From Aerosakkonema sp. BLCC-F183 (GTDB lineage: Bacteria > Cyanobacteriota > Cyanobacteriia > Cyanobacteriales > Aerosakkonemataceae): a stretch of DNA of 20,867 bases. Location of the stretch: NCBI RefSeq assembly GCF_041929145.1, contig NZ_JBHFNU010000005.1, positions 1 to 20,867 of the forward strand. The letters are read 5' to 3'. This document shows, one piece after another, positions 3,669 through 16,646 of this stretch. The stretch's first letter is position 1, and every line of letters begins with the position of its first letter. The position numbers were made by a program, and so were the translations under genes. The notes under the pieces are model-generated. The model had not been told where the DNA came from. It worked only from the letters and a program-made list of their open reading frames with translations, and searched no databases.

Positions 3669-4124
3669 TTCACCAATTTAAGTACTTGTACCAGTATCGA
3701 TCAATATTGGCGAACTGCCCTACCCCAAGCATCCGAGATACGTTAAACTAGCTCCCATCTTATGTTTTTTAACAGCTGCGGTTAAAACTTTTAACCAAGC
3801 CCAATCACTTATTGTCATCTTCCGAAGGAGATATATATTGGGTCAATCTGGGATGCAGTTGACTGGATTCCTACAAACCCAAACTCGGTAAAAAGTTGTA
3901 GCTTCCCCAGACAAAAGGCAAACTTAATGATGTGTCAATACTGTTAGGTTAAGACTCGCTCGCCCCTAGCCTTCCTTGACAAGGGAGGTTGCGGTGCAGT
4001 CCATGAAGTAAATCAAACGCTACCAACACAGTATTGAAGAATAAGTTACTCACAGCAGGCACAACTAGCTATGTGTCTGTTCTTGTCAAATCGAGCTTCT
4101 GTAATCGTTGGGCGGTGAGAAGTG

Positions 4125-6311
4125 ATGCAAAAAGTAATGAAAAATCCAATTCCCTTAGCTGTTGGTGCGGGGCTATCGGTTTTGTTGATTGGAAGTACGT
4201 TGTTATTAATGAGATGGAGCGATGGGGAACAGGCTGCGCCCGAAGCTACTGAAGTGCAGGGTGAGCTAAGTTCTCAGTCAAAAGAAAAGCCGAAGTCCGC
4301 AACATTGCCACTGGTAACACTTTCACCGACTCAACGGGCAAGCGATCTGGAAAAGATCGCCTCCGGAGGAAAATCGCTCGATCGCCATCGCGCCCGGTAT
4401 GTGCTGGCTAGCGACCTAATTCAACAGAATCGCGGGCAAAAGGCGATCGCCTGGTTGGAGGGATTGGAACAAGATTATCCCCTATTAGCGCCACATATAA
4501 TCGCAAAACGCGCCCAAGCTTATGAAGTGAGCGGCGATAAAGCCAAAGCAAACGCAACTTGGCAAGAAGTGCTGCAAAAGTATCCGCAAAGTGCGGTAGC
4601 GGCAGAGGCGCTGTTTGCTTTGGGACGCACCGATCCGCAATACTGGGATAAGGCGATCGCATCTTTTCCCGATCACCCCCGCACCGCTGAAATCGCCTGG
4701 ACTCGCCTCAAGCAAAATCCCGATCGACTACCCTTACTACGGCTGTTAGTGAAGCACGACCCCGACAGCAAGCAAATCAACACCGTTTTAGAAGCCCTGC
4801 AAAACAAGTATGCCGCTCAGTTAAAGCCGGAAGATTGGGAAGCAATAGCCTACATATACTGGGATAGGTTTGATTTCGATAAAGCCGGACAAGCTTATGC
4901 CAAAGCTACCCGCACGCCCCTCAATCTCTACCGCGCCGGTCGGGGACGCCAACTGCGCGGTAAAAGAACAGAAGCTGTATTAGCTTATCAGCAGTTGCTC
5001 AAGGAGTTCCCCGAAGCGAAGGAAACTGGTTTGGCGGCGGTACGCTTAGGGCAGTTACTTTTGTCACCAGCTGCTTTACCGTATCTGGACATGGCAATTA
5101 ACCGATTTCCAGAAAAAGCCGGTGAAGCGCTTTTACTCAAAGCCAAAATTCTCGACGGTACGGGAAGCGCCAAGTCAGCATCGCAAGCTCGTCAGTTGGC
5201 GCTGAGCAAATATGCAGATTCGGAAGCAGTGGCTGAATATCGTTGGAACGTAGCCAAAGGTAGAGCCAATGTGGGAGATTTAATGGGGGCTTGGCAATGG
5301 GCTCAACCGATTACTAAGCACAATCCCGATAGCGAATTTGCACCCAAAGCGGCTTTTTGGGTGGGGAAATGGGCGACTAGATTGGGGCGTCAACAGGATG
5401 CCAAAGCTTCTTTTGAATATGTGTTGAAAAACTATCCAGAATCTTACTATGCTTGGCGATCGGCTGGCATACTCGGTTTGAATGTGGGCACTTTCAACAC
5501 CGTGCGCGATATGATGCCCCAAGTTGTGAAAGCCTCGGAAAAACCCTTGTTGCCAGCTGGTTCTGAAGTTATGAAAGAACTATACCAACTCGGGCAAAAG
5601 CGCGATGCTTGGGCGATGTGGCAAACAGAATTTCATAACCGCATCCAGCCAACGGTAAAAGAACAATTCACCGATGGGGTTCTGCGCTTGGGAATCGGAG
5701 AAAATATCAAGGGAATTACGCAGGTGGAGGGTGTGAGCTGGTGGCGGGATACGCCTGCGGAGAAAGCTGAAATATCTGCTCTCAAGCAAGATATGGCATA
5801 TTGGCACGCCCTCTATCCATTTCCATTTATGGAATATATCGAAACTTGGTCGCAAGAACGCAAGCTCAATCCGTTACTCGTAACAGCCCTCATCCGCCAA
5901 GAATCTCGCTTTGAACCTACCATCCGTTCCATTGCCGGTGCTGTTGGTTTGATGCAGGTAATGCCCAGTACAGGTGCCTGGATCGCTCAAGCAACAAACA
6001 TTAAAAGTTATGCTTTAGATAATCCCAACGATAACATCAAATTTGGCACTTGGTATCTGGATCATACCCATGAGACATACAACAATAATTCTCTGTTTGC
6101 TGTCGCCAGTTATAATGCTGGGCCAGGGAATGTGTCAAAATGGATATCGCAGTTTGGTTTGACCGATCCGGATGAATTTGTGGAAGCCGTTCCCTTTCCA
6201 GAAACTCAAGGTTATATCAAACACGTGTTTGAAAATTATTGGAACTATCTGCGGCTGTACAATCCCCAAATGTCTGAAATATTATCCCATTACAAACGCA
6301 CGAAAAATTAA
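4125..6311 (+). CDS. slt: Soluble lytic murein transglycosylase (Slt70-like) with an N-terminal membrane anchor or signal, a superhelical repeat region and a C-terminal SLT domain
   Basis: The C-terminus ...LIRQESRFEPTIRSIAGAVGLMQVMPSTGAW...AVASYNAGPGNV is the classic SLT catalytic motif set (ES...GLMQ...AYNAG). The N-terminus MKNPIPLAVGAGLSVLLIGSTLLLM is hydrophobic. The long alpha-helical region matches the Slt70 superhelix. Possible starts are GTG 4122, ATG 4125 and ATG 4137. Confidence 0.8.
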   Translation: MQKVMKNPIPLAVGAGLSVLLIGSTLLLMRWSDGEQAAPEATEVQGELSSQSKEKPKSATLPLVTLSPTQRASDLEKIASGGKSLDRHRARYVLASDLIQQNRGQKAIAWLEGLEQDYPLLAPHIIAKRAQAYEVSGDKAKANATWQEVLQKYPQSAVAAEALFALGRTDPQYWDKAIASFPDHPRTAEIAWTRLKQNPDRLPLLRLLVKHDPDSKQINTVLEALQNKYAAQLKPEDWEAIAYIYWDRFDFDKAGQAYAKATRTPLNLYRAGRGRQLRGKRTEAVLAYQQLLKEFPEAKETGLAAVRLGQLLLSPAALPYLDMAINRFPEKAGEALLLKAKILDGTGSAKSASQARQLALSKYADSEAVAEYRWNVAKGRANVGDLMGAWQWAQPITKHNPDSEFAPKAAFWVGKWATRLGRQQDAKASFEYVLKNYPESYYAWRSAGILGLNVGTFNTVRDMMPQVVKASEKPLLPAGSEVMKELYQLGQKRDAWAMWQTEFHNRIQPTVKEQFTDGVLRLGIGENIKGITQVEGVSWWRDTPAEKAEISALKQDMAYWHALYPFPFMEYIETWSQERKLNPLLVTALIRQESRFEPTIRSIAGAVGLMQVMPSTGAWIAQATNIKSYALDNPNDNIKFGTWYLDHTHETYNNNSLFAVASYNAGPGNVSKWISQFGLTDPDEFVEAVPFPETQGYIKHVFENYWNYLRLYNPQMSEILSHYKRTKN

Positions 6312-6320
6312 CAGTGGAGG

Positions 6321-6355
6321 AGTCAAAAGTCAAAAGTCAAAAGTCAAAAGTCAAA
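6321..6355. repeat. (AGTCAAA)5 perfect heptamer tandem repeat, STRR-like
   Basis: agtcaaa repeats five times with no mismatch, directly downstream of the slt stop. Confidence 0.9.
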
Positions 6356-6390: not shown

Positions 6391-6428
6391 CCGGACGCCC
6401 GACGCCCGACGCCCGACGCCCGACGCCC
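6391..6428. repeat. (CCCGACG)5 heptamer tandem repeat preceded by a CT-rich cctctccctcttcccttttccc tract
   Basis: ccggacg is followed by four copies of cccgacg and then ccc. The CT-rich tract at 6366-6392 shares the TCCCTCTCCC motif with the repeat block at 2077-2110. Confidence 0.9.
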
Positions 6429-8046: not shown

Positions 8047-9819
8047 TCACAAGATATCCTCTGCAAACTTTCCGAGATTTTCCTGTCTCCACTTAGCATC
8101 TGCCTTCCGATTTGTTCTCAATTCTAATACCCGAATTCCTTGTTCTGGCAGAGGATTCAATCTTTGTTTCAGTTGCTGCCAAGAAGCGATCGCTTCATAT
8201 TCGACATTGTAGGTAGCACAAAGCTGAGCGAAATCTATATCCTGGGGTGTGGCAAAAAATTCTTCAAATGGCGGCTCAAATTTGGCAATTGGCAACATTT
8301 CAAATATACCACCACCATTGTTATTAATCAAGATAATAGTGAGATGTCCGAGAAATTTATTTCTCAATAAAAAGCCGTTGGTATCGTGCAACAAAGCTAA
8401 ATCTCCAGTCAGCATGACGCTGCTTTGATGGCGATGGGCAATGCCTAAAGCGGTGGATAAAGTGCCGTCGATGCCATTAGCGCCCCGGTTGAAAAAGGGT
8501 TGAATTCCAGAATTGTTCGGTGTCCAGAAAAATTCCACATCTCGCACGGGCATACTGTTGGCAATAAATATAGGCGTTGCTGGTGGTAAAGACTGGGAAA
8601 GTAACCAAGCAACTTTACATTCAAATAAGGTTTCTGTTGTTGCCATTGTGCGGTCAATGCGTTGCCTGACAGTGGCTTCGGCATCGCACCAAATTTGCAG
8701 ATATTTACTGAGATTATTTGGTTCGATCGCACATATTTGCGCTAGCTGTTCTACGGATAATCGCAGATGAGTTGTGTTGCCGTGTAGCGGATCTAAATTG
8801 TGATGGCTGGTGTCAATTACCCATGTGAGCGGTTGGGTTGATTCTAACCAAGTTCGCAGTTCTTTACTGGTGGGTAAGTCTCCTATCTGGATGGCGATTT
8901 CCGGTTTAAGTTGTTGTGCTATTTGTTGGTTTCTTAATATCGAATCGTAGGTGGAAATTAAGTAAGGATTTAGTTCGGCATAATTTCGCAATGGCGATAA
9001 TCCCTCTGCTAATACAGGCCATTTTAAGGTTTGGGAAAGTTGGGCAATTGCCTGACAATATTGTTTGGGAAAGTGAGGTTGTGACGTGCCGGCGATGATG
9101 ATTCCATGCTCGCATTGCGACCAGTTTTGTAACGTATTGAGTAAAGAATTATTGTTGGCTATTGACAACTGACAACTGACAACTGACGACTGACAACTAG
9201 CAAAGAAATGTTCTGGCTGAAATTGCGATCGCAACTCCTCGGTAGCCGCTTGGGGTATGGGGGCGAGAGGGTCGCGAAAGGGGATGTTAAGATGGATTGG
9301 GCCGGGAACGGGAAAGAGCGATCGCTCCCACCCATGAATAATTGTTTGCCGCAGATAATTCAGCATTCCTATTTCTAATGATGGCACTGCTAACTCGGCT
9401 TGCCAGTTCGGATAAGTGCCATATAATTTGATTTGGTCGATAGTTTGTCCGGAATGACAATCTCGCAATTCTGGGGGGCGATCGGCTGTGAAAACTAACA
9501 GCGGTACGCGACTTTCTCTGGCTTCAATAATAGCAGGATAAAAGTTTGCGCCCGCAGTTCCGGAAGTGCAAACTAATGCTACTGGCAAACCTGATTTTTT
9601 GGCAATTCCCAAAGCAAAAAAAGCAGCCGATCGCTCGTCCAAAACGGGAATTGCTTCTATTTTATCTTGTTGGGCAAAAGCAACTGCCAAAGCAGTAGAA
9701 CGCGACCCCGGACAGATAACTGCTGTAGTTAGTCCGAGTCGTTTTAAGGTTTCCGTAAGTATGGAAGCCCAGACAGAATTAGTGTTGCGAAAATCTATGG
9801 GCATTGGGGATTGGGTCAT
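8047..9819 (-). CDS. menD: 2-succinyl-5-enolpyruvyl-6-hydroxy-3-cyclohexene-1-carboxylate (SEPHCHC) synthase, MenD, ThDP-dependent
   Basis: The 590-aa product has the N-terminus ...SVWASILTETLKRLGLTTAVICPGSRSTALAVAFA typical of MenD. ThDP-fold motifs GDLALLHD and NNNGGGIF are present. It abuts menF with start and stop adjacent at 9819/9820. Confidence 0.9.
   Translation of the reverse strand: MTQSPMPIDFRNTNSVWASILTETLKRLGLTTAVICPGSRSTALAVAFAQQDKIEAIPVLDERSAAFFALGIAKKSGLPVALVCTSGTAGANFYPAIIEARESRVPLLVFTADRPPELRDCHSGQTIDQIKLYGTYPNWQAELAVPSLEIGMLNYLRQTIIHGWERSLFPVPGPIHLNIPFRDPLAPIPQAATEELRSQFQPEHFFASCQSSVVSCQLSIANNNSLLNTLQNWSQCEHGIIIAGTSQPHFPKQYCQAIAQLSQTLKWPVLAEGLSPLRNYAELNPYLISTYDSILRNQQIAQQLKPEIAIQIGDLPTSKELRTWLESTQPLTWVIDTSHHNLDPLHGNTTHLRLSVEQLAQICAIEPNNLSKYLQIWCDAEATVRQRIDRTMATTETLFECKVAWLLSQSLPPATPIFIANSMPVRDVEFFWTPNNSGIQPFFNRGANGIDGTLSTALGIAHRHQSSVMLTGDLALLHDTNGFLLRNKFLGHLTIILINNNGGGIFEMLPIAKFEPPFEEFFATPQDIDFAQLCATYNVEYEAIASWQQLKQRLNPLPEQGIRVLELRTNRKADAKWRQENLGKFAEDIL
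9163..9197. repeat. (TGACAAC)5 heptamer tandem repeat lying inside the menD coding sequence
   Basis: tgacaac tgacaac tgacaac tgacgac tgacaac is read on the minus strand as the low-complexity peptide ASCQSSVVSCQLS within MenD. Confidence 0.85.
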
Positions 9820-11247
9820 TCACACTAAAGCTTTGAGAAGTGCTTGAAGTTTCAGTTGAATTTCTGCAAGTTCTTTGTCTGGATCTGAGCCAGCAACGAT
9901 ACCGGCACCTGCGTACAGTCTAGCGCGATCGCTATCTATCAGTGCTGAACGAATGCCTACGACAAACTCGCTGTTACCGCGATGATCTATCCAACCTAAT
10001 GGTGCCGCATAAACAGAGCGATCGAATGCTTCATAGCGGCGAATTTGGCTCAGCGCGATATCTCTAGGATCGCCTGCAACAGCAGGGGTGGGATGGAGTT
10101 CTGCCAAAATTTGTAATGGCTGCACACCGCCAGCGATTTTACCTCGAATTGGTGTCCATAAATGTTGTATATTTGATAGCTGTAAAAGACCGGGAATAGG
10201 AAGTCGCTGGTGTGACAAACCGAGGTTGGATAAGCGCTCGACAATGAAATCAATTACAACTCGATGTTCCCGCCTTTCCTTTTCGCTCCTGAGCAAACGT
10301 TCAGCAAAATAGGCATCTTCGGCTGCTGTTTTGCCTCGCGGTGCTGACCCCGCCAAAGCATCGGTTTCTAATTCTCGCTCTTGTATCCTAATTAAGCGCT
10401 CTGGACTGGCACCGATAAAATCTTTACCTTTGCCGTTACTGGTAGAAAAAACATAGCAATCGGGATACATTCTTCGCAAATTATTTAAGGAATCAACCCG
10501 ACGAAAAGGGCGCGGCGAATTAACCTCAATTGCGTGAGCTAAGACAATTTTGCTAAAATGTTTAGACCGAATCGATTGCAATGCCGATACGACTGAGGCT
10601 TGAAAATTTCTGCGATCGGTTACATCTTGCGGTTGAAATTTCTGTTTATAATCGCTCAAATGAAAATTTCTGTAGTTCGCGAATCTAATTTGGTGGAGTT
10701 TCTGCCATATATTCTCTGCTATAACTTCGATGTTTGCATTGCTGTCGATTACAGTATTAGCCACTATAACACAGTAATCTTTTTGACAGGAAACCTGCCA
10801 GCGAGGTAAAAAAACTGTGGCGGCGGGGAAAGGAGAATCACCATTGATATTCTCATCAAAAAATGTGAAAGTACAGAAAAAGTGAGGCCCAGAAAAAGGC
10901 AGGTCTAACGCGCCTGTGGCAATTGTGTTAGCAAGGCATGAATCGATAAATTTTTGTGCTTGCGAAAAGCGATCGACTCCTTCTAACTTAAATTTAGCGG
11001 CTGTATCGATCGCCGCGATCGCTTCCCCTTGATTGGCTTTTTCCCAATAAAAATGCAGTTTTTCCGGCTCGGCAATGCGATCGAGTACAGCTAGCGGATC
11101 GAGCGGTTTACTTGGCAGGGAAATACTGACAACTTTTTGCAGCCCTTTTTCAATTAACGTTTGTTTGCAAGCTAAAAGAAACTGATGCAGTTCCTTGCGA
11201 TCTTCAAACAGATTAGGATGATGTGTCACTGGCACGGAAGCGAACAT
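9820..11247 (-). CDS. menF: Isochorismate synthase MenF (chorismate-binding enzyme family)
   Basis: The 475-aa product has a chorismate-utilising C-terminus with PTPAVAG and YAGAGIVAGSDPDKELAEI motifs. It lies immediately upstream of and co-oriented with menD. Confidence 0.85.
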   Translation of the reverse strand: MFASVPVTHHPNLFEDRKELHQFLLACKQTLIEKGLQKVVSISLPSKPLDPLAVLDRIAEPEKLHFYWEKANQGEAIAAIDTAAKFKLEGVDRFSQAQKFIDSCLANTIATGALDLPFSGPHFFCTFTFFDENINGDSPFPAATVFLPRWQVSCQKDYCVIVANTVIDSNANIEVIAENIWQKLHQIRFANYRNFHLSDYKQKFQPQDVTDRRNFQASVVSALQSIRSKHFSKIVLAHAIEVNSPRPFRRVDSLNNLRRMYPDCYVFSTSNGKGKDFIGASPERLIRIQERELETDALAGSAPRGKTAAEDAYFAERLLRSEKERREHRVVIDFIVERLSNLGLSHQRLPIPGLLQLSNIQHLWTPIRGKIAGGVQPLQILAELHPTPAVAGDPRDIALSQIRRYEAFDRSVYAAPLGWIDHRGNSEFVVGIRSALIDSDRARLYAGAGIVAGSDPDKELAEIQLKLQALLKALV

Positions 11248-11400
11248 AGCAAATTTTTTTAACGTTTGCTTGCCAAATTTTCAATTATGAGCATGGTAGG
11301 GCTAGAGTTAGCACACTCCCACTCCATCTAACCACTTCTGGCGTTCCGTTGTACCAGGCTAGTAGTCCACCAAATTGATTTTAATGGGTTGTCGTCGGCC

Positions 11401-11433
11401 AGAAACCCGGTGTTTTAGAAAAACCGGGTTTCT
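11401..11433. promoter_or_regulatory. 33-bp near-perfect palindrome AGAAACCCGGTgTTTTagAAAAaCCGGGTTTCT in the divergent menF/menA intergenic region
   Basis: The 11-bp arms AGAAACCCGGT and ACCGGGTTTCT are exact reverse complements. The central gttttagaaaa is itself nearly palindromic. No U-tract follows on either strand, so it does not look like a terminator. Confidence 0.45.
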
Positions 11434-11460
11434 CAAACTGCCGATTCTGCGGGCGAAACA

Positions 11461-11506
11461 GCCCCGTTGTGGGGAATGGCGCGACTCGAAGCGGGGCCAC
11501 AACGGG
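11461..11506. promoter_or_regulatory. GC-rich region with mutually exclusive alternative hairpins (10-bp stem CCCGTTGTGG/CCACAACGGG versus 6-bp GCCCCG/CGGGGC)
   Basis: 11463-11472 pairs with 11497-11506 as a perfect 10-bp stem. 11461-11466 pairs with 11492-11497 as an alternative 6-bp stem. 11462-11474 ccccgttgtgggg can also fold on itself. Confidence 0.35.
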
Positions 11507-11655
11507 TCAAAAGGTTTGAAATCCCTGCTTGGTGGTAGCGACACTGGCAACGTCCCCAGCAAAGATTGTGGCCTGCGTTATCCAGATTGAGTTTACCATT
11601 GCGACCTCAGCATCATAAAATTATGAGATTCGGAAAATTCAATCGATACCGTCCG

Positions 11656-12561
11656 ATGACTACACAATCTATTGCTCATTCAAACAGTAAGTTGTGGTTG
11701 GCAGCACTTAAACCACCGATGTACAGCGTTGCCGTGATTCCAATTTGGGTGGGAACTGCTGTTGCTTGCGCGGAAAATAACACTTTTAATGGCGCAATCT
11801 TTTCGACATTTTTAATTTCAGCGATTTTGATTGTTGCGTGGCTGAATCTCAGCAACGATGTGTTCGATTCGGAAACTGGAATTGATAAAAACAAAGCGCA
11901 TTCGCTCGTTAATTTAACAGGAAATAAACCCTTAATTTTCTGGTTGGCGAATTTGTTTTTAGCTGTGGGTATTCTGGGAGTAGTGGCGATCGCATGGTGG
12001 CAACAAGACCTCACTGTAATCGGTCTGATACTGCTCTGCTGTGCTATGGGCTACACTTACCAAGGGCCGCCCTTTCGGTTGGGATATCAGGGTTTGGGGG
12101 AAATTATTTGCTTTTTTACCTTTGGGCCATTGGGCGGATCGGCGGCGTACTACAGCCAAACCCAAAGCTGGTCGATCGCCAATATAGCAGCTTCTGCGAT
12201 CGTCGGCATCGTCACCAGCTTGATTTTGTTTTGCTCCCATTTTCATCAACTTGAAGACGACCTAGCGGCAGGGAAGAAATCGCCCATTGTCCGACTCGGC
12301 ACTGCCAAAGCATCCCAGCTATTACCTTGGTTTGGCGGCAGCATTTACCCTTTGACTGTGCTGTTCGTCGCATTGCACATTTTTCCAGTTTGGACATTGC
12401 TAATCTTTGTCAGTTTACCCCTCGCCCTCAAGTTATTCCGACACGTTGGCGAAAATCACGATCGACCGGAAAAAGTCAGCAATTGTAAATTTATCGCCGT
12501 AGCCCTGCATTTTTGGAGTGGCTTACTGTTAGGATTGGGATTCGTACTTGCCAACATTTGA
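11656..12561 (+). CDS. menA: 1,4-dihydroxy-2-naphthoate phytyltransferase MenA (UbiA prenyltransferase family)
   Basis: The product is a polytopic membrane protein with the MenA-type first motif NDVFDSETGID (NDxxDxxxGxD) and a second Asp-rich motif near EDDLAAGKKS. It is followed by menC and menE. The ORF is open from 11566 and ATG 11623 is also possible. ATG 11656 (MTTQS...) gives a length typical of MenA. The stop TGA at 12559-12561 overlaps the menC ATG. Confidence 0.8.
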   Translation: MTTQSIAHSNSKLWLAALKPPMYSVAVIPIWVGTAVACAENNTFNGAIFSTFLISAILIVAWLNLSNDVFDSETGIDKNKAHSLVNLTGNKPLIFWLANLFLAVGILGVVAIAWWQQDLTVIGLILLCCAMGYTYQGPPFRLGYQGLGEIICFFTFGPLGGSAAYYSQTQSWSIANIAASAIVGIVTSLILFCSHFHQLEDDLAAGKKSPIVRLGTAKASQLLPWFGGSIYPLTVLFVALHIFPVWTLLIFVSLPLALKLFRHVGENHDRPEKVSNCKFIAVALHFWSGLLLGLGFVLANI

Positions 12562-16297: not shown

Positions 16298-16563
16298 GTA
16301 ATGATGATAGCTAACCTAGATAATAAGCATTTTTGAGAGTGGGTTTTTATATCGTGTCCGGTTGCATCGGTAGTATATGAGCGAAGCGAAACGTTCTCTG
16401 TGGGAATTGGGGGTGAAAATTTTACCGCAGATGTAGGCAGATTAACGCAGATAAACGCAGATAAGAACGCTATTTTTTTATGCAACCGATGCTACCAAAC
16501 ATCATATTAGATCCTCGCTGGGTGGGAGCGATCGCAACTCATTTTCATGGCATTAACTCATAA

Positions 16564-16589
16564 CTGTAGGGTGCTAATACACACCCTAC
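16564..16589. terminator. Perfect 9-bp stem hairpin TGTAGGGTG-ctaataca-CACCCTACA, candidate terminator about 60 nt beyond the TerB-like gene
   Basis: The inverted repeat is exact. The flanks are moderately T-rich on the plus side and there is only a weak U-run on the minus side. Confidence 0.35.
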
Positions 16590-16646
16590 ATTAGTTTAAT
16601 CAAAAATTGCCAGCCTGGATGACCGTGCAGTTTGCTGAATAAACTT

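Follow-up and report, generated by a model that had tools for sequence, protein, structure and literature searches.

A 33-bp palindrome between the divergent menFD and menACE genes of Aerosakkonema is very probably a copy of a dispersed repeat of filamentous cyanobacteria

In Aerosakkonema sp. BLCC-F183, the men genes of phylloquinone synthesis form two divergent groups, menFD and menACE, separated by a spacer of 408 bp. A nearly perfect palindrome of 33 bp occupies positions 11401-11433 of this spacer, and a GC-rich segment able to fold into alternative hairpins lies at 11461-11506 (coordinates are those of the whole 20,867-nucleotide stretch of contig NZ_JBHFNU010000005.1 analysed here, referred to below as the window). 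The locus raises the question of whether these features control the men genes, as the operator of a dimeric regulator or as a structured RNA, or whether the palindrome is a miniature dispersed repeat, a fallback that the initial annotation of the region had kept in view. We conclude that the palindrome is very probably a copy of a small, non-coding, dispersed repeat with no men-specific control role, and we put the probability of this reading at about 0.85.

The palindrome reads AGAAACCCGGT, GTTTTAGAAAA and ACCGGGTTTCT in succession, and its outer 11-bp arms are exact. The arms can be extended to 15 nt around a 3-nt centre at 93% complementarity, with one G.A mismatch at 11412/11422. Inspection of the sequence and comparison with shuffled versions agree that the near-perfect palindrome first annotated here is real: the arm pattern has one match in the window and none in 100 shuffles. 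Folded as RNA, the element reaches -18 kcal/mol (z = -3.75). Exact hairpins of 10 bp or more number two in the spacer, where composition-preserving shuffles predict 0.012, and three in the whole window, where 0.62 are expected (P = 0.02). The sole other exact hairpin of this size in the window, CTTAGTTGAG-GAAA-CTCAACTAAG, with a stem of 10 bp, lies at 227-250.

We scanned 185,579 species-representative genomes for the two 11-nt arms separated by any loop of 0-30 nt. It gave at least 116 stretches at well over 100 unrelated loci, nearly all of them in filamentous cyanobacteria, of which about 40 genomes other than that of the window are represented. Occurrence at dozens of unrelated loci was what the initial annotation had named in advance as speaking against an operator, and by that measure the operator reading is refuted; the fallback of a miniature dispersed palindromic repeat is the proposal that the scan bears out. 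The carriers listed span several cyanobacterial orders and include Scytonema, Stigonema, Heteroscytonema, Rivularia, Oscillatoria, Microcoleus and Phormidium, and also Hormoscilla, Okeania, Microseira, Limnofasciculus, Floridaenema and others. Single genomes can hold many copies: at least 13 at six loci in Oscillatoria princeps, at least eight at seven loci in Scytonema PMC 1070.18, and at least six in Oscillatoria PCC 10802. A search of a plasmid collection, with the whole spacer (blastn) and the consensus 33-mer as queries, found no cyanobacterial match.

The anatomy of the family, described here from the matches listed by the scan, is regular. The length is exactly 33 bp in 92 of 147 matches, the most frequent centres of these 33-bp matches are TTCTTTAAGAA, TTCTTAAAGAA and TTTTTGGAAAA, and the consensus is AGAAACCCGGTTTCT-N3-AGAAACCGGGTTTCT. 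The basic unit is a 15-nt palindrome, AGAAACCSGGTTTCT, which has a CCSGG core and exists in a C-form and a G-form, each the reverse complement of the other. In 842 kb of cyanobacterial loci, doublets account for 151 units and a further 44 stand alone; the family also includes long-loop forms that have G-rich cores. The copy in the window is an inverted doublet of the 15-nt unit with a TAG centre, of the TTTT..AAAA subtype, with half-sites at 11401-11415 (two mismatches to AGAAACCSGGTTTCT) and 11419-11433 (one mismatch). In the 90 copies available with flanks, information content drops to about zero just beyond the edges of the 33-mer and the flanking sequences are unrelated.

Positions that the search pattern left free covary in these copies so that the 15-bp stem is kept. 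At stem pair 14-20, 54 of the 92 copies have C-G, 32 have T-A and only 4 are unpaired; at pair 12-22, T-A accounts for 87 copies and A-T for 4. Pairing beyond the edges of the 33-mer is at or below random. In the window, G11412 disrupts pair 12-22, where a 98% relative (contig L124) carries T, so the window copy has undergone slight decay.

The listed copies avoid coding sequence. Long open frames (at least 150 codons) contain 11 of 92 copies (12%), as compared with 76% of random positions. Among the 57 copies whose surrounding gene gap could be classified, 24 lie between convergent genes, where 12.3 are expected, and 7 between divergent genes, where 13.4 are expected. Target-site duplications were looked for and not found: flanks of 2, 3 and 4 nt match in 3, 0 and 0 of the 92 copies, no more often than expected. 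No recurrent neighbour gene, transposase or RAYT was seen in 8-kb windows around the listed copies, and the recurrence that neighbour clustering did detect was limited to large paralogous superfamilies (ABC ATPases, kinases, TPR, Uma2).

Orthologous menF-menA regions were gathered by means of MenA homologs, which their sources name 2-carboxy-1,4-naphthoquinone phytyltransferase, and gave nine distinct spacers including that of the window. The palindrome is present in three of the nine and absent from six. It occurs in the window and in L124 (MenA 98% identical), both of which also have the GC hairpin, and in L125/L126 (84%), which have no GC hairpin. The L125/L126 palindrome is of another subtype, TTCTTGAAGAA, and stands 34 nt from the next conserved block, as against 100 nt in the window. 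Contigs L120-123 (87%) have no palindrome and retain the arms of the GC hairpin in unpaired form. Neither feature is found in L131 (82%), L127/128 (82%), L132/133 (80%), L134 (82%) or L130 (83%), the last of which has a cytochrome P450 gene inserted. A different palindrome, GAGATCCCCGACATCTTTAAGATGTCGGGGATCT, follows that P450 gene at about 2218-2252 of L130; its arms are of about 15 nt, its centre is TTTAA, and in overall design it is the same. Three read-assembly (Logan) contigs, L124, L125 and L126, start within the palindrome, which is consistent with, and not decisive for, a repeat or a strong hairpin encountered during de Bruijn assembly.

The geometry of the element invites comparison with an operator that would co-regulate menFD and menACE: it has exact 11-bp inverted arms around an AT-rich centre, it lies between divergent operons, and L124 and L125/126, two related lineages, share it with the window in this same spacer. 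We nevertheless consider such an operator highly improbable. The same sequence is dispersed over more than 100 unrelated loci beside unrelated genes, and it is not conserved across orthologous spacers, six of the nine lacking it, including that of the 87% relative; the 84% carrier differs in both subtype and spacing. The palindrome sits in the non-conserved centre of the spacer, outside the conserved blocks described below and 159 nt from the predicted menA -35-like hexamer, while the family as listed favours the 3' ends of genes and is depleted between divergent genes. Moreover, the compensatory changes preserve a stem, which argues for a hairpin rather than for two half-sites read independently.

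A terminator is harder still to credit, whether read in one direction or in both. The hairpin is stable at -18 kcal/mol, the family is enriched between convergent genes among the copies listed, and hairpins with the same 11-nt arms and other loops, in phage and Collinsella sequences, are followed by T-runs. However, menF and menA both point away from the palindrome, leaving nothing to terminate, a terminator scan found no sites, and the listed family copies show no conserved T-run or U-run after the stem. These viral and Collinsella hairpins, which include 11 matches in viral contigs, resemble ordinary terminators rather than members of the family, and the viral contigs gave no sign of a phage vector.

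The regulatory information for the men genes is most likely located in two conserved blocks, at 11248-11345 and 11578-11625, that lie next to the genes. Ortholog alignments show these two blocks flanking a variable centre, 11361-11560, which carries both the palindrome and the GC hairpin and in which, as alignments, raw spacers and composition indicate, indels and replacements are many and insertions are tolerated. GC content at 11400-11549 is 58-61%, compared with 45% over the window. To the right of the spacer lies menA (11656-12561, plus strand), encoding a UbiA-family prenyl/phytyl transferase (PF01040); it is the first gene of a rightward operon in which menC and then menE follow on the same strand. 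To the left lies menF (9820-11247, minus strand), encoding isochorismate synthase (Chorismate_bind, PF00425, E = 1e-71). It is also called as a gene on the source contig, and it heads a leftward pair with menD (8047-9819, minus strand). The genes menD, menC and menE all match the Pfam families expected of men genes, so the divergent menFD/menACE context assigned at the outset stands.

The block next to menA, CCAGATTGAGTTTACCATTGC...CATCATAAAATTA at 11578-11625 on the plus strand, is kept in seven of eight orthologs. It contains the sole promoter-like site returned by our scan, TTTACC-N17/18-TAAAAT at 11592-11621 on the plus strand, with the -35-like TTTACC at 11592-11597, the -10-like TAAAAT at 11616-11621, and 9 of 12 matches to consensus. 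From this match and the conservation of the block, 11592-11621 is likely the menA promoter. A metagenome scan with the conserved menA promoter block gave a single match, to a contig already collected. On the other side, alignment and the minus-strand sequence suggest that 11248-11345 is probably the 5' untranslated region and promoter region of menF. Scanning of the minus strand found no consensus promoter; a -10-like CATAAT is present within the block at 11289-11284. Beside the menF start codon, the leader at 11248-11290 contains GCAAA-N11-TTTGC and an A/T-rich inverted repeat, and these repeats are kept in the 87%, 82% and 80% relatives. This leader is therefore a stronger candidate than the palindrome for a role in men regulation.

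With both promoters predicted in this way, the palindrome would lie upstream of each: 159 nt would separate it from the conserved -35-like hexamer of menA, and about 110 nt or more from the -10-like hexamer in the conserved menF block. Because it is placed upstream of both conserved blocks, it is probably outside both transcripts and without a men-specific role.

Copies of the family turn up elsewhere in the men clusters of relatives. In contigs L120-123, a solitary 15-mer, AGAAACCGGGTTTCT, stands at 4065 in the spacer after menA. It is preceded, within 3900-4080, by CCCTCCCCGTTAACAGGGAGGG, CCCTGCCCGTTAACGGGCAG and CCCTCTCCGTTGCGGGGAGGGGG, GC-rich mini hairpins that share a single design; these resemble another small repeat family and bear a loose likeness to GCCCCGTTGTGGGG of the window. 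A perfect 33-mer lies in frame inside menC at 3751-3783 of L132, and also in L133 (both are Joint Genome Institute (JGI) metagenome contigs). Translation of this copy gives ..QTRNPVSSRNRVSKNK.., part of an additional loop of about 25 residues not present in three other MenC orthologs, and decayed partial copies of the family flank the 33-mer. These further copies show that the family is active or frequent in the clade. The presence of the palindrome near men genes is positional chance.

The family also occurs within larger and in amplified structures. In two sets of contigs (L031, L045, L050, L051, L058 and L071; L046, L079 and L080), the 33-mer lies centrally in at least two kinds of larger inverted-repeat elements that resemble miniature inverted-repeat transposable elements (MITEs), with flanks of the types atagcaNNcctaaatcattYgtga... 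and agcggttttcaYttggat...atgaaaaccgct. This arrangement indicates nesting of repeats. In Oscillatoria sp. HE19RPO (contig L066), positions 5000-5670 hold a satellite with a period of 83 bp, in eight copies at 96% identity, and positions 4091-4347 hold an array with a period of 99 bp. Both are built on long-loop palindrome forms that have G-rich cores. A CRISPR-like nature of the L066 array was considered and ruled out, since its "spacers" are identical and the array is the 83-bp satellite.

Copies with the family's loop design also reach beyond the Cyanobacteria. Seven contigs (L020, L024, L048, L049, L055, L088 and L089), with GC fractions of 0.51-0.69 and assigned to Anaerolineae, Promineifilaceae, Ardenticatenaceae and Planctomycetota (that is, to Chloroflexota and Planctomycetota), carry one such copy each, of 33 bp (34 bp in L048). 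In addition, L020 contains a variant pair, AGAAACCCGGCTTCT / AGAAGCCGGGTTTCT, that shows a compensatory change. Contamination of genome bins is an unlikely source of these cross-phylum copies, because one of them lies on a contig of 4.4 Mb.

Repetitive extragenic palindromes (REPs), and the hairpin-forming REP doublets known as REPINs (Bertels & Rainey 2011, PMC3116915; Di Nocera et al. 2013, PMC3733652), are the nearest known counterparts. The family resembles them as a palindrome of 20-40 bp with many dispersed, extragenic copies that prefers the 3' ends of genes, and its usual form is likewise an inverted doublet that makes a single long hairpin with a stem kept by compensatory changes. Several differences are nonetheless clear. 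A GTAG/CGTC tetranucleotide tag at the stem ends was not found in the listed copies, whose flank positions hold about 0-0.3 bits; neither a RAYT nor another transposase was found within the 8-kb windows around them; the 15-nt unit is itself palindromic; and the sequence is shared between orders and even phyla, whereas a given REP is as a rule confined to one species or genus. The REP of Nostoc punctiforme (gttgggtt..aacccaac, PMC3116915) differs in sequence from the family. In the relevant literature searched, no name for the family was found, nor were its core strings of 11 and 13 nt, and the repeat is not among the sequences given in the supplements of the REPIN and GTAG/CGTC papers.

Other classes of small repeat share part of this description. 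Rickettsia palindromic elements (RPEs) insert in frame into protein-coding genes. The family copy translated within the ~25-residue MenC loop of L132/L133 is like them in this respect, but it is the single in-frame case, the element is much shorter, and the window copy is intergenic. Small dispersed repeats (SDRs) of Nostocaceae were reportedly described by Elhai et al. in 2008, in Genome Res 18:1484 (cited in PMC5861425 and PMC3116915). They were reported to be 21-27 nt long and, according to PMC5861425, were not found outside Nostocaceae. Like the present family, they are reported as very small non-coding repeats of filamentous cyanobacteria that occur alone, nested in MITE-like repeats and in tandem arrays. 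Nesting of this SDR type is visible in the flanks atagca..cctaaatcatt and agcggttttca..tgaaaaccgct around some copies, and the L066 satellites correspond to the arrays. The family differs in having units of 15 or 33 nt and in being abundant in Oscillatoriales-type genomes, a comparison made with the published descriptions of SDRs. Finally, the long-loop forms look like a variable core, of no more than about 30 nt, bounded on each side by a 15-bp terminal inverted repeat, and in this they recall bacterial MITEs such as Nezha (Zhou et al. 2008, as cited in PMC3733652). Unlike MITEs, the family shows no target-site duplication and no evident related transposase, and its usual 33 nt is much shorter than the 100-400 bp usual for MITEs.

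Two further features of the window belong to this comparison with known repeats. At 16558-16592 there is a hairpin, tGTAGGGTG-ctaataca-CACCCTACa, which opens with GTAG, as do the GTAG-tagged REPs that have been reported from cyanobacteria; repeated ACGCAGATAA motifs lie near it at 16430-16470, and one end of contig L118, a read-assembly contig of the same strain, falls at about 16378. Adjacent heptamer tandem arrays, (AGTCAAA)n at 6322-6352 and (CGACGCC)n at 6394-6426, are typical sequences of the short tandemly repeated repetitive (STRR) kind known from filamentous cyanobacteria, and L118 also ends there.

Taken as a dispersed repeat, the palindrome would have the following history. The AGAAACCSGGTTTCT unit, mostly as an inverted doublet with a 3-nt centre, forms a 33-nt hairpin with a 15-bp stem and sits at unrelated, mostly extragenic sites, favouring the 3' ends of genes and sometimes becoming nested in larger elements or amplified into satellites. 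In the present lineage, one copy would have landed in, or been retained in, the unconstrained centre of the menF-menA spacer, where it would since have begun to decay through the mismatch at G11412.

Several observations weigh against this account. The dispersal is seen in other genomes, and the window itself has a single copy. The spacer centre is too rearranged among orthologs for a clean 33-bp empty site to be defined. The palindrome in the same spacer of the 84% relative could mean that it was retained rather than inserted independently. Near-identity across orders, together with the single copies in Chloroflexota and Planctomycetota, hints at a conserved trans-acting partner. The placement upstream of both predicted promoters depends on a consensus match and on conservation. 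Lastly, chance does not account for the two alternative stems that the GC segment forms in this spacer, and a single change of A11489 to C in L124 switches the preferred stem.

An alternative is that the family has a general host function: it could be bound by a conserved DNA- or RNA-binding protein, such as a RAYT-like transposase, gyrase, IHF or some nucleoid protein, or it could serve as an RNA hairpin at the 3' ends of transcripts. The men copy would then have a local effect, for example as a barrier to supercoiling or transcription between the divergent promoters. We regard this as unlikely. In its favour are the near-invariance of the 33-mer across orders and its single copies in Chloroflexota and Planctomycetota, the compensatory maintenance of the stem, the significant enrichment between convergent genes among the listed copies, and the precedent of enterobacterial REP/BIME sequences, which bind gyrase and IHF and stabilise the 3' ends of mRNA (PMC3733652). 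On the other hand, no recurrent protein gene is found near the listed copies and no U-run follows the hairpin. Most orthologs lack the men copy, which itself has a stem mismatch, so that any effect it has is dispensable for men expression; the enrichment at 3' ends is explained equally well by selection against insertions in promoters. The more specific version, in which the AGAAACCSGGTTTCT doublet is a REPIN-like element kept near-invariant by a conserved trans-acting protein and the men copy modulates both promoters, we likewise judge doubtful. The putative partner might be a domesticated Y1 transposase or an enzyme that recognises CCSGG, with the copies serving as 3'-end or topological hairpins, and in this lineage the men copy would possibly act together with the switchable GC hairpin.

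The GC-rich segment itself, at 11461-11506, does contain the two mutually exclusive stems first described for it, and both exceed chance. Stem A pairs 11463-11472 (CCCGTTGTGG) with 11497-11506 (CCACAACGGG) over 10 exact base pairs. Stem B pairs GCCCCG at 11461-11466 with CGGGGC at 11492-11497 over 6 exact base pairs; if a G.A mismatch at 11469/11489 and three G-U pairs are allowed, it reaches 13 positions (11461-11473 with 11485-11497). In L124, the replacement of A11489 by C strengthens stem B, which becomes the minimum-energy fold there. The suggestion that this segment is an undescribed men-specific riboswitch or structured RNA is not supported by comparison. Among the orthologous spacers compared, the hairpin is confined to the window and its 98% relative; no covariation is seen, the stems being identical in the two; and Rfam gives no match at the gathering score or at E <= 1. 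In L121, one of the 87% relatives, the homologous arms AAACAGCCCCCTTGTG ... CAACGGGTCAA are present, the stem is not formed, and the fold has z = +0.93; the arms are absent in L125, L131, L127, L132 and L134. No copies of the GC hairpin occur in the 842 kb of other cyanobacterial loci, and its arms have one unrelated match in viral contigs.

It is accordingly very unlikely that 11461-11506 is an attenuator, a riboswitch-like element or a small RNA that controls menA. The alternative stems are real, the two exact spacer hairpins are far above chance, on the minus strand the 221-nt region as a whole has a more stable fold than its shuffles (z = -2.48), and one A-to-C change in L124 shifts the preferred stem. 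Yet the structure exists only in the window and one 98% relative, is unpaired in the 87% relative and absent in five other orthologs, and has no compensatory changes. Its own folding z-scores are weak (-1.7 to -1.9), the Rfam search is blank, and it lies upstream of the conserved promoter-like block with no promoter-like or terminator-like sites found flanking it. From these sequence comparisons we regard the GC hairpin as a separate, lineage-specific inverted repeat that appears to derive from ancestral spacer sequence, with no evident conserved function, and as neither a conserved RNA nor an operator. It would most likely have arisen by neutral change and drift, or by template-switch "perfection" of a quasi-palindrome. 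We also considered 11514-11530 as a decayed second terminal repeat bracketing the hairpin; this was ruled out, as it is ancestral spacer sequence found in L121 and L131, which have no palindrome.

Two overlapping open reading frames (ORFs) with TTG starts run through the same region in the mechanical ORF list, one at 11359-11562 on the minus strand (67 aa) and one at 11375-11590 on the plus strand (71 aa). Neither has a Pfam match. Against the 98% relative, amino-acid identity is low, at 80-83% in both overlapping frames, and no other ortholog spacer gives a match. As initially supposed, they are artefacts of a GC-rich segment that is poor in stop codons.

The analysis provides no evidence, at this palindrome or hairpin, of a cyanobacterial riboswitch or regulator site for men genes or phylloquinone, and it removes a false lead. 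The sequences relevant to men regulation would instead be the gene-proximal blocks at 11248-11345 and 11578-11625. Were a conserved partner protein of the family to be identified, cyanobacteria would have a modestly interesting parallel to the REPIN-RAYT system. For the annotation of these genomes, the family matters as a repeat that breaks short-read assemblies, yields spurious small ORFs, and can occur in frame inside genes.

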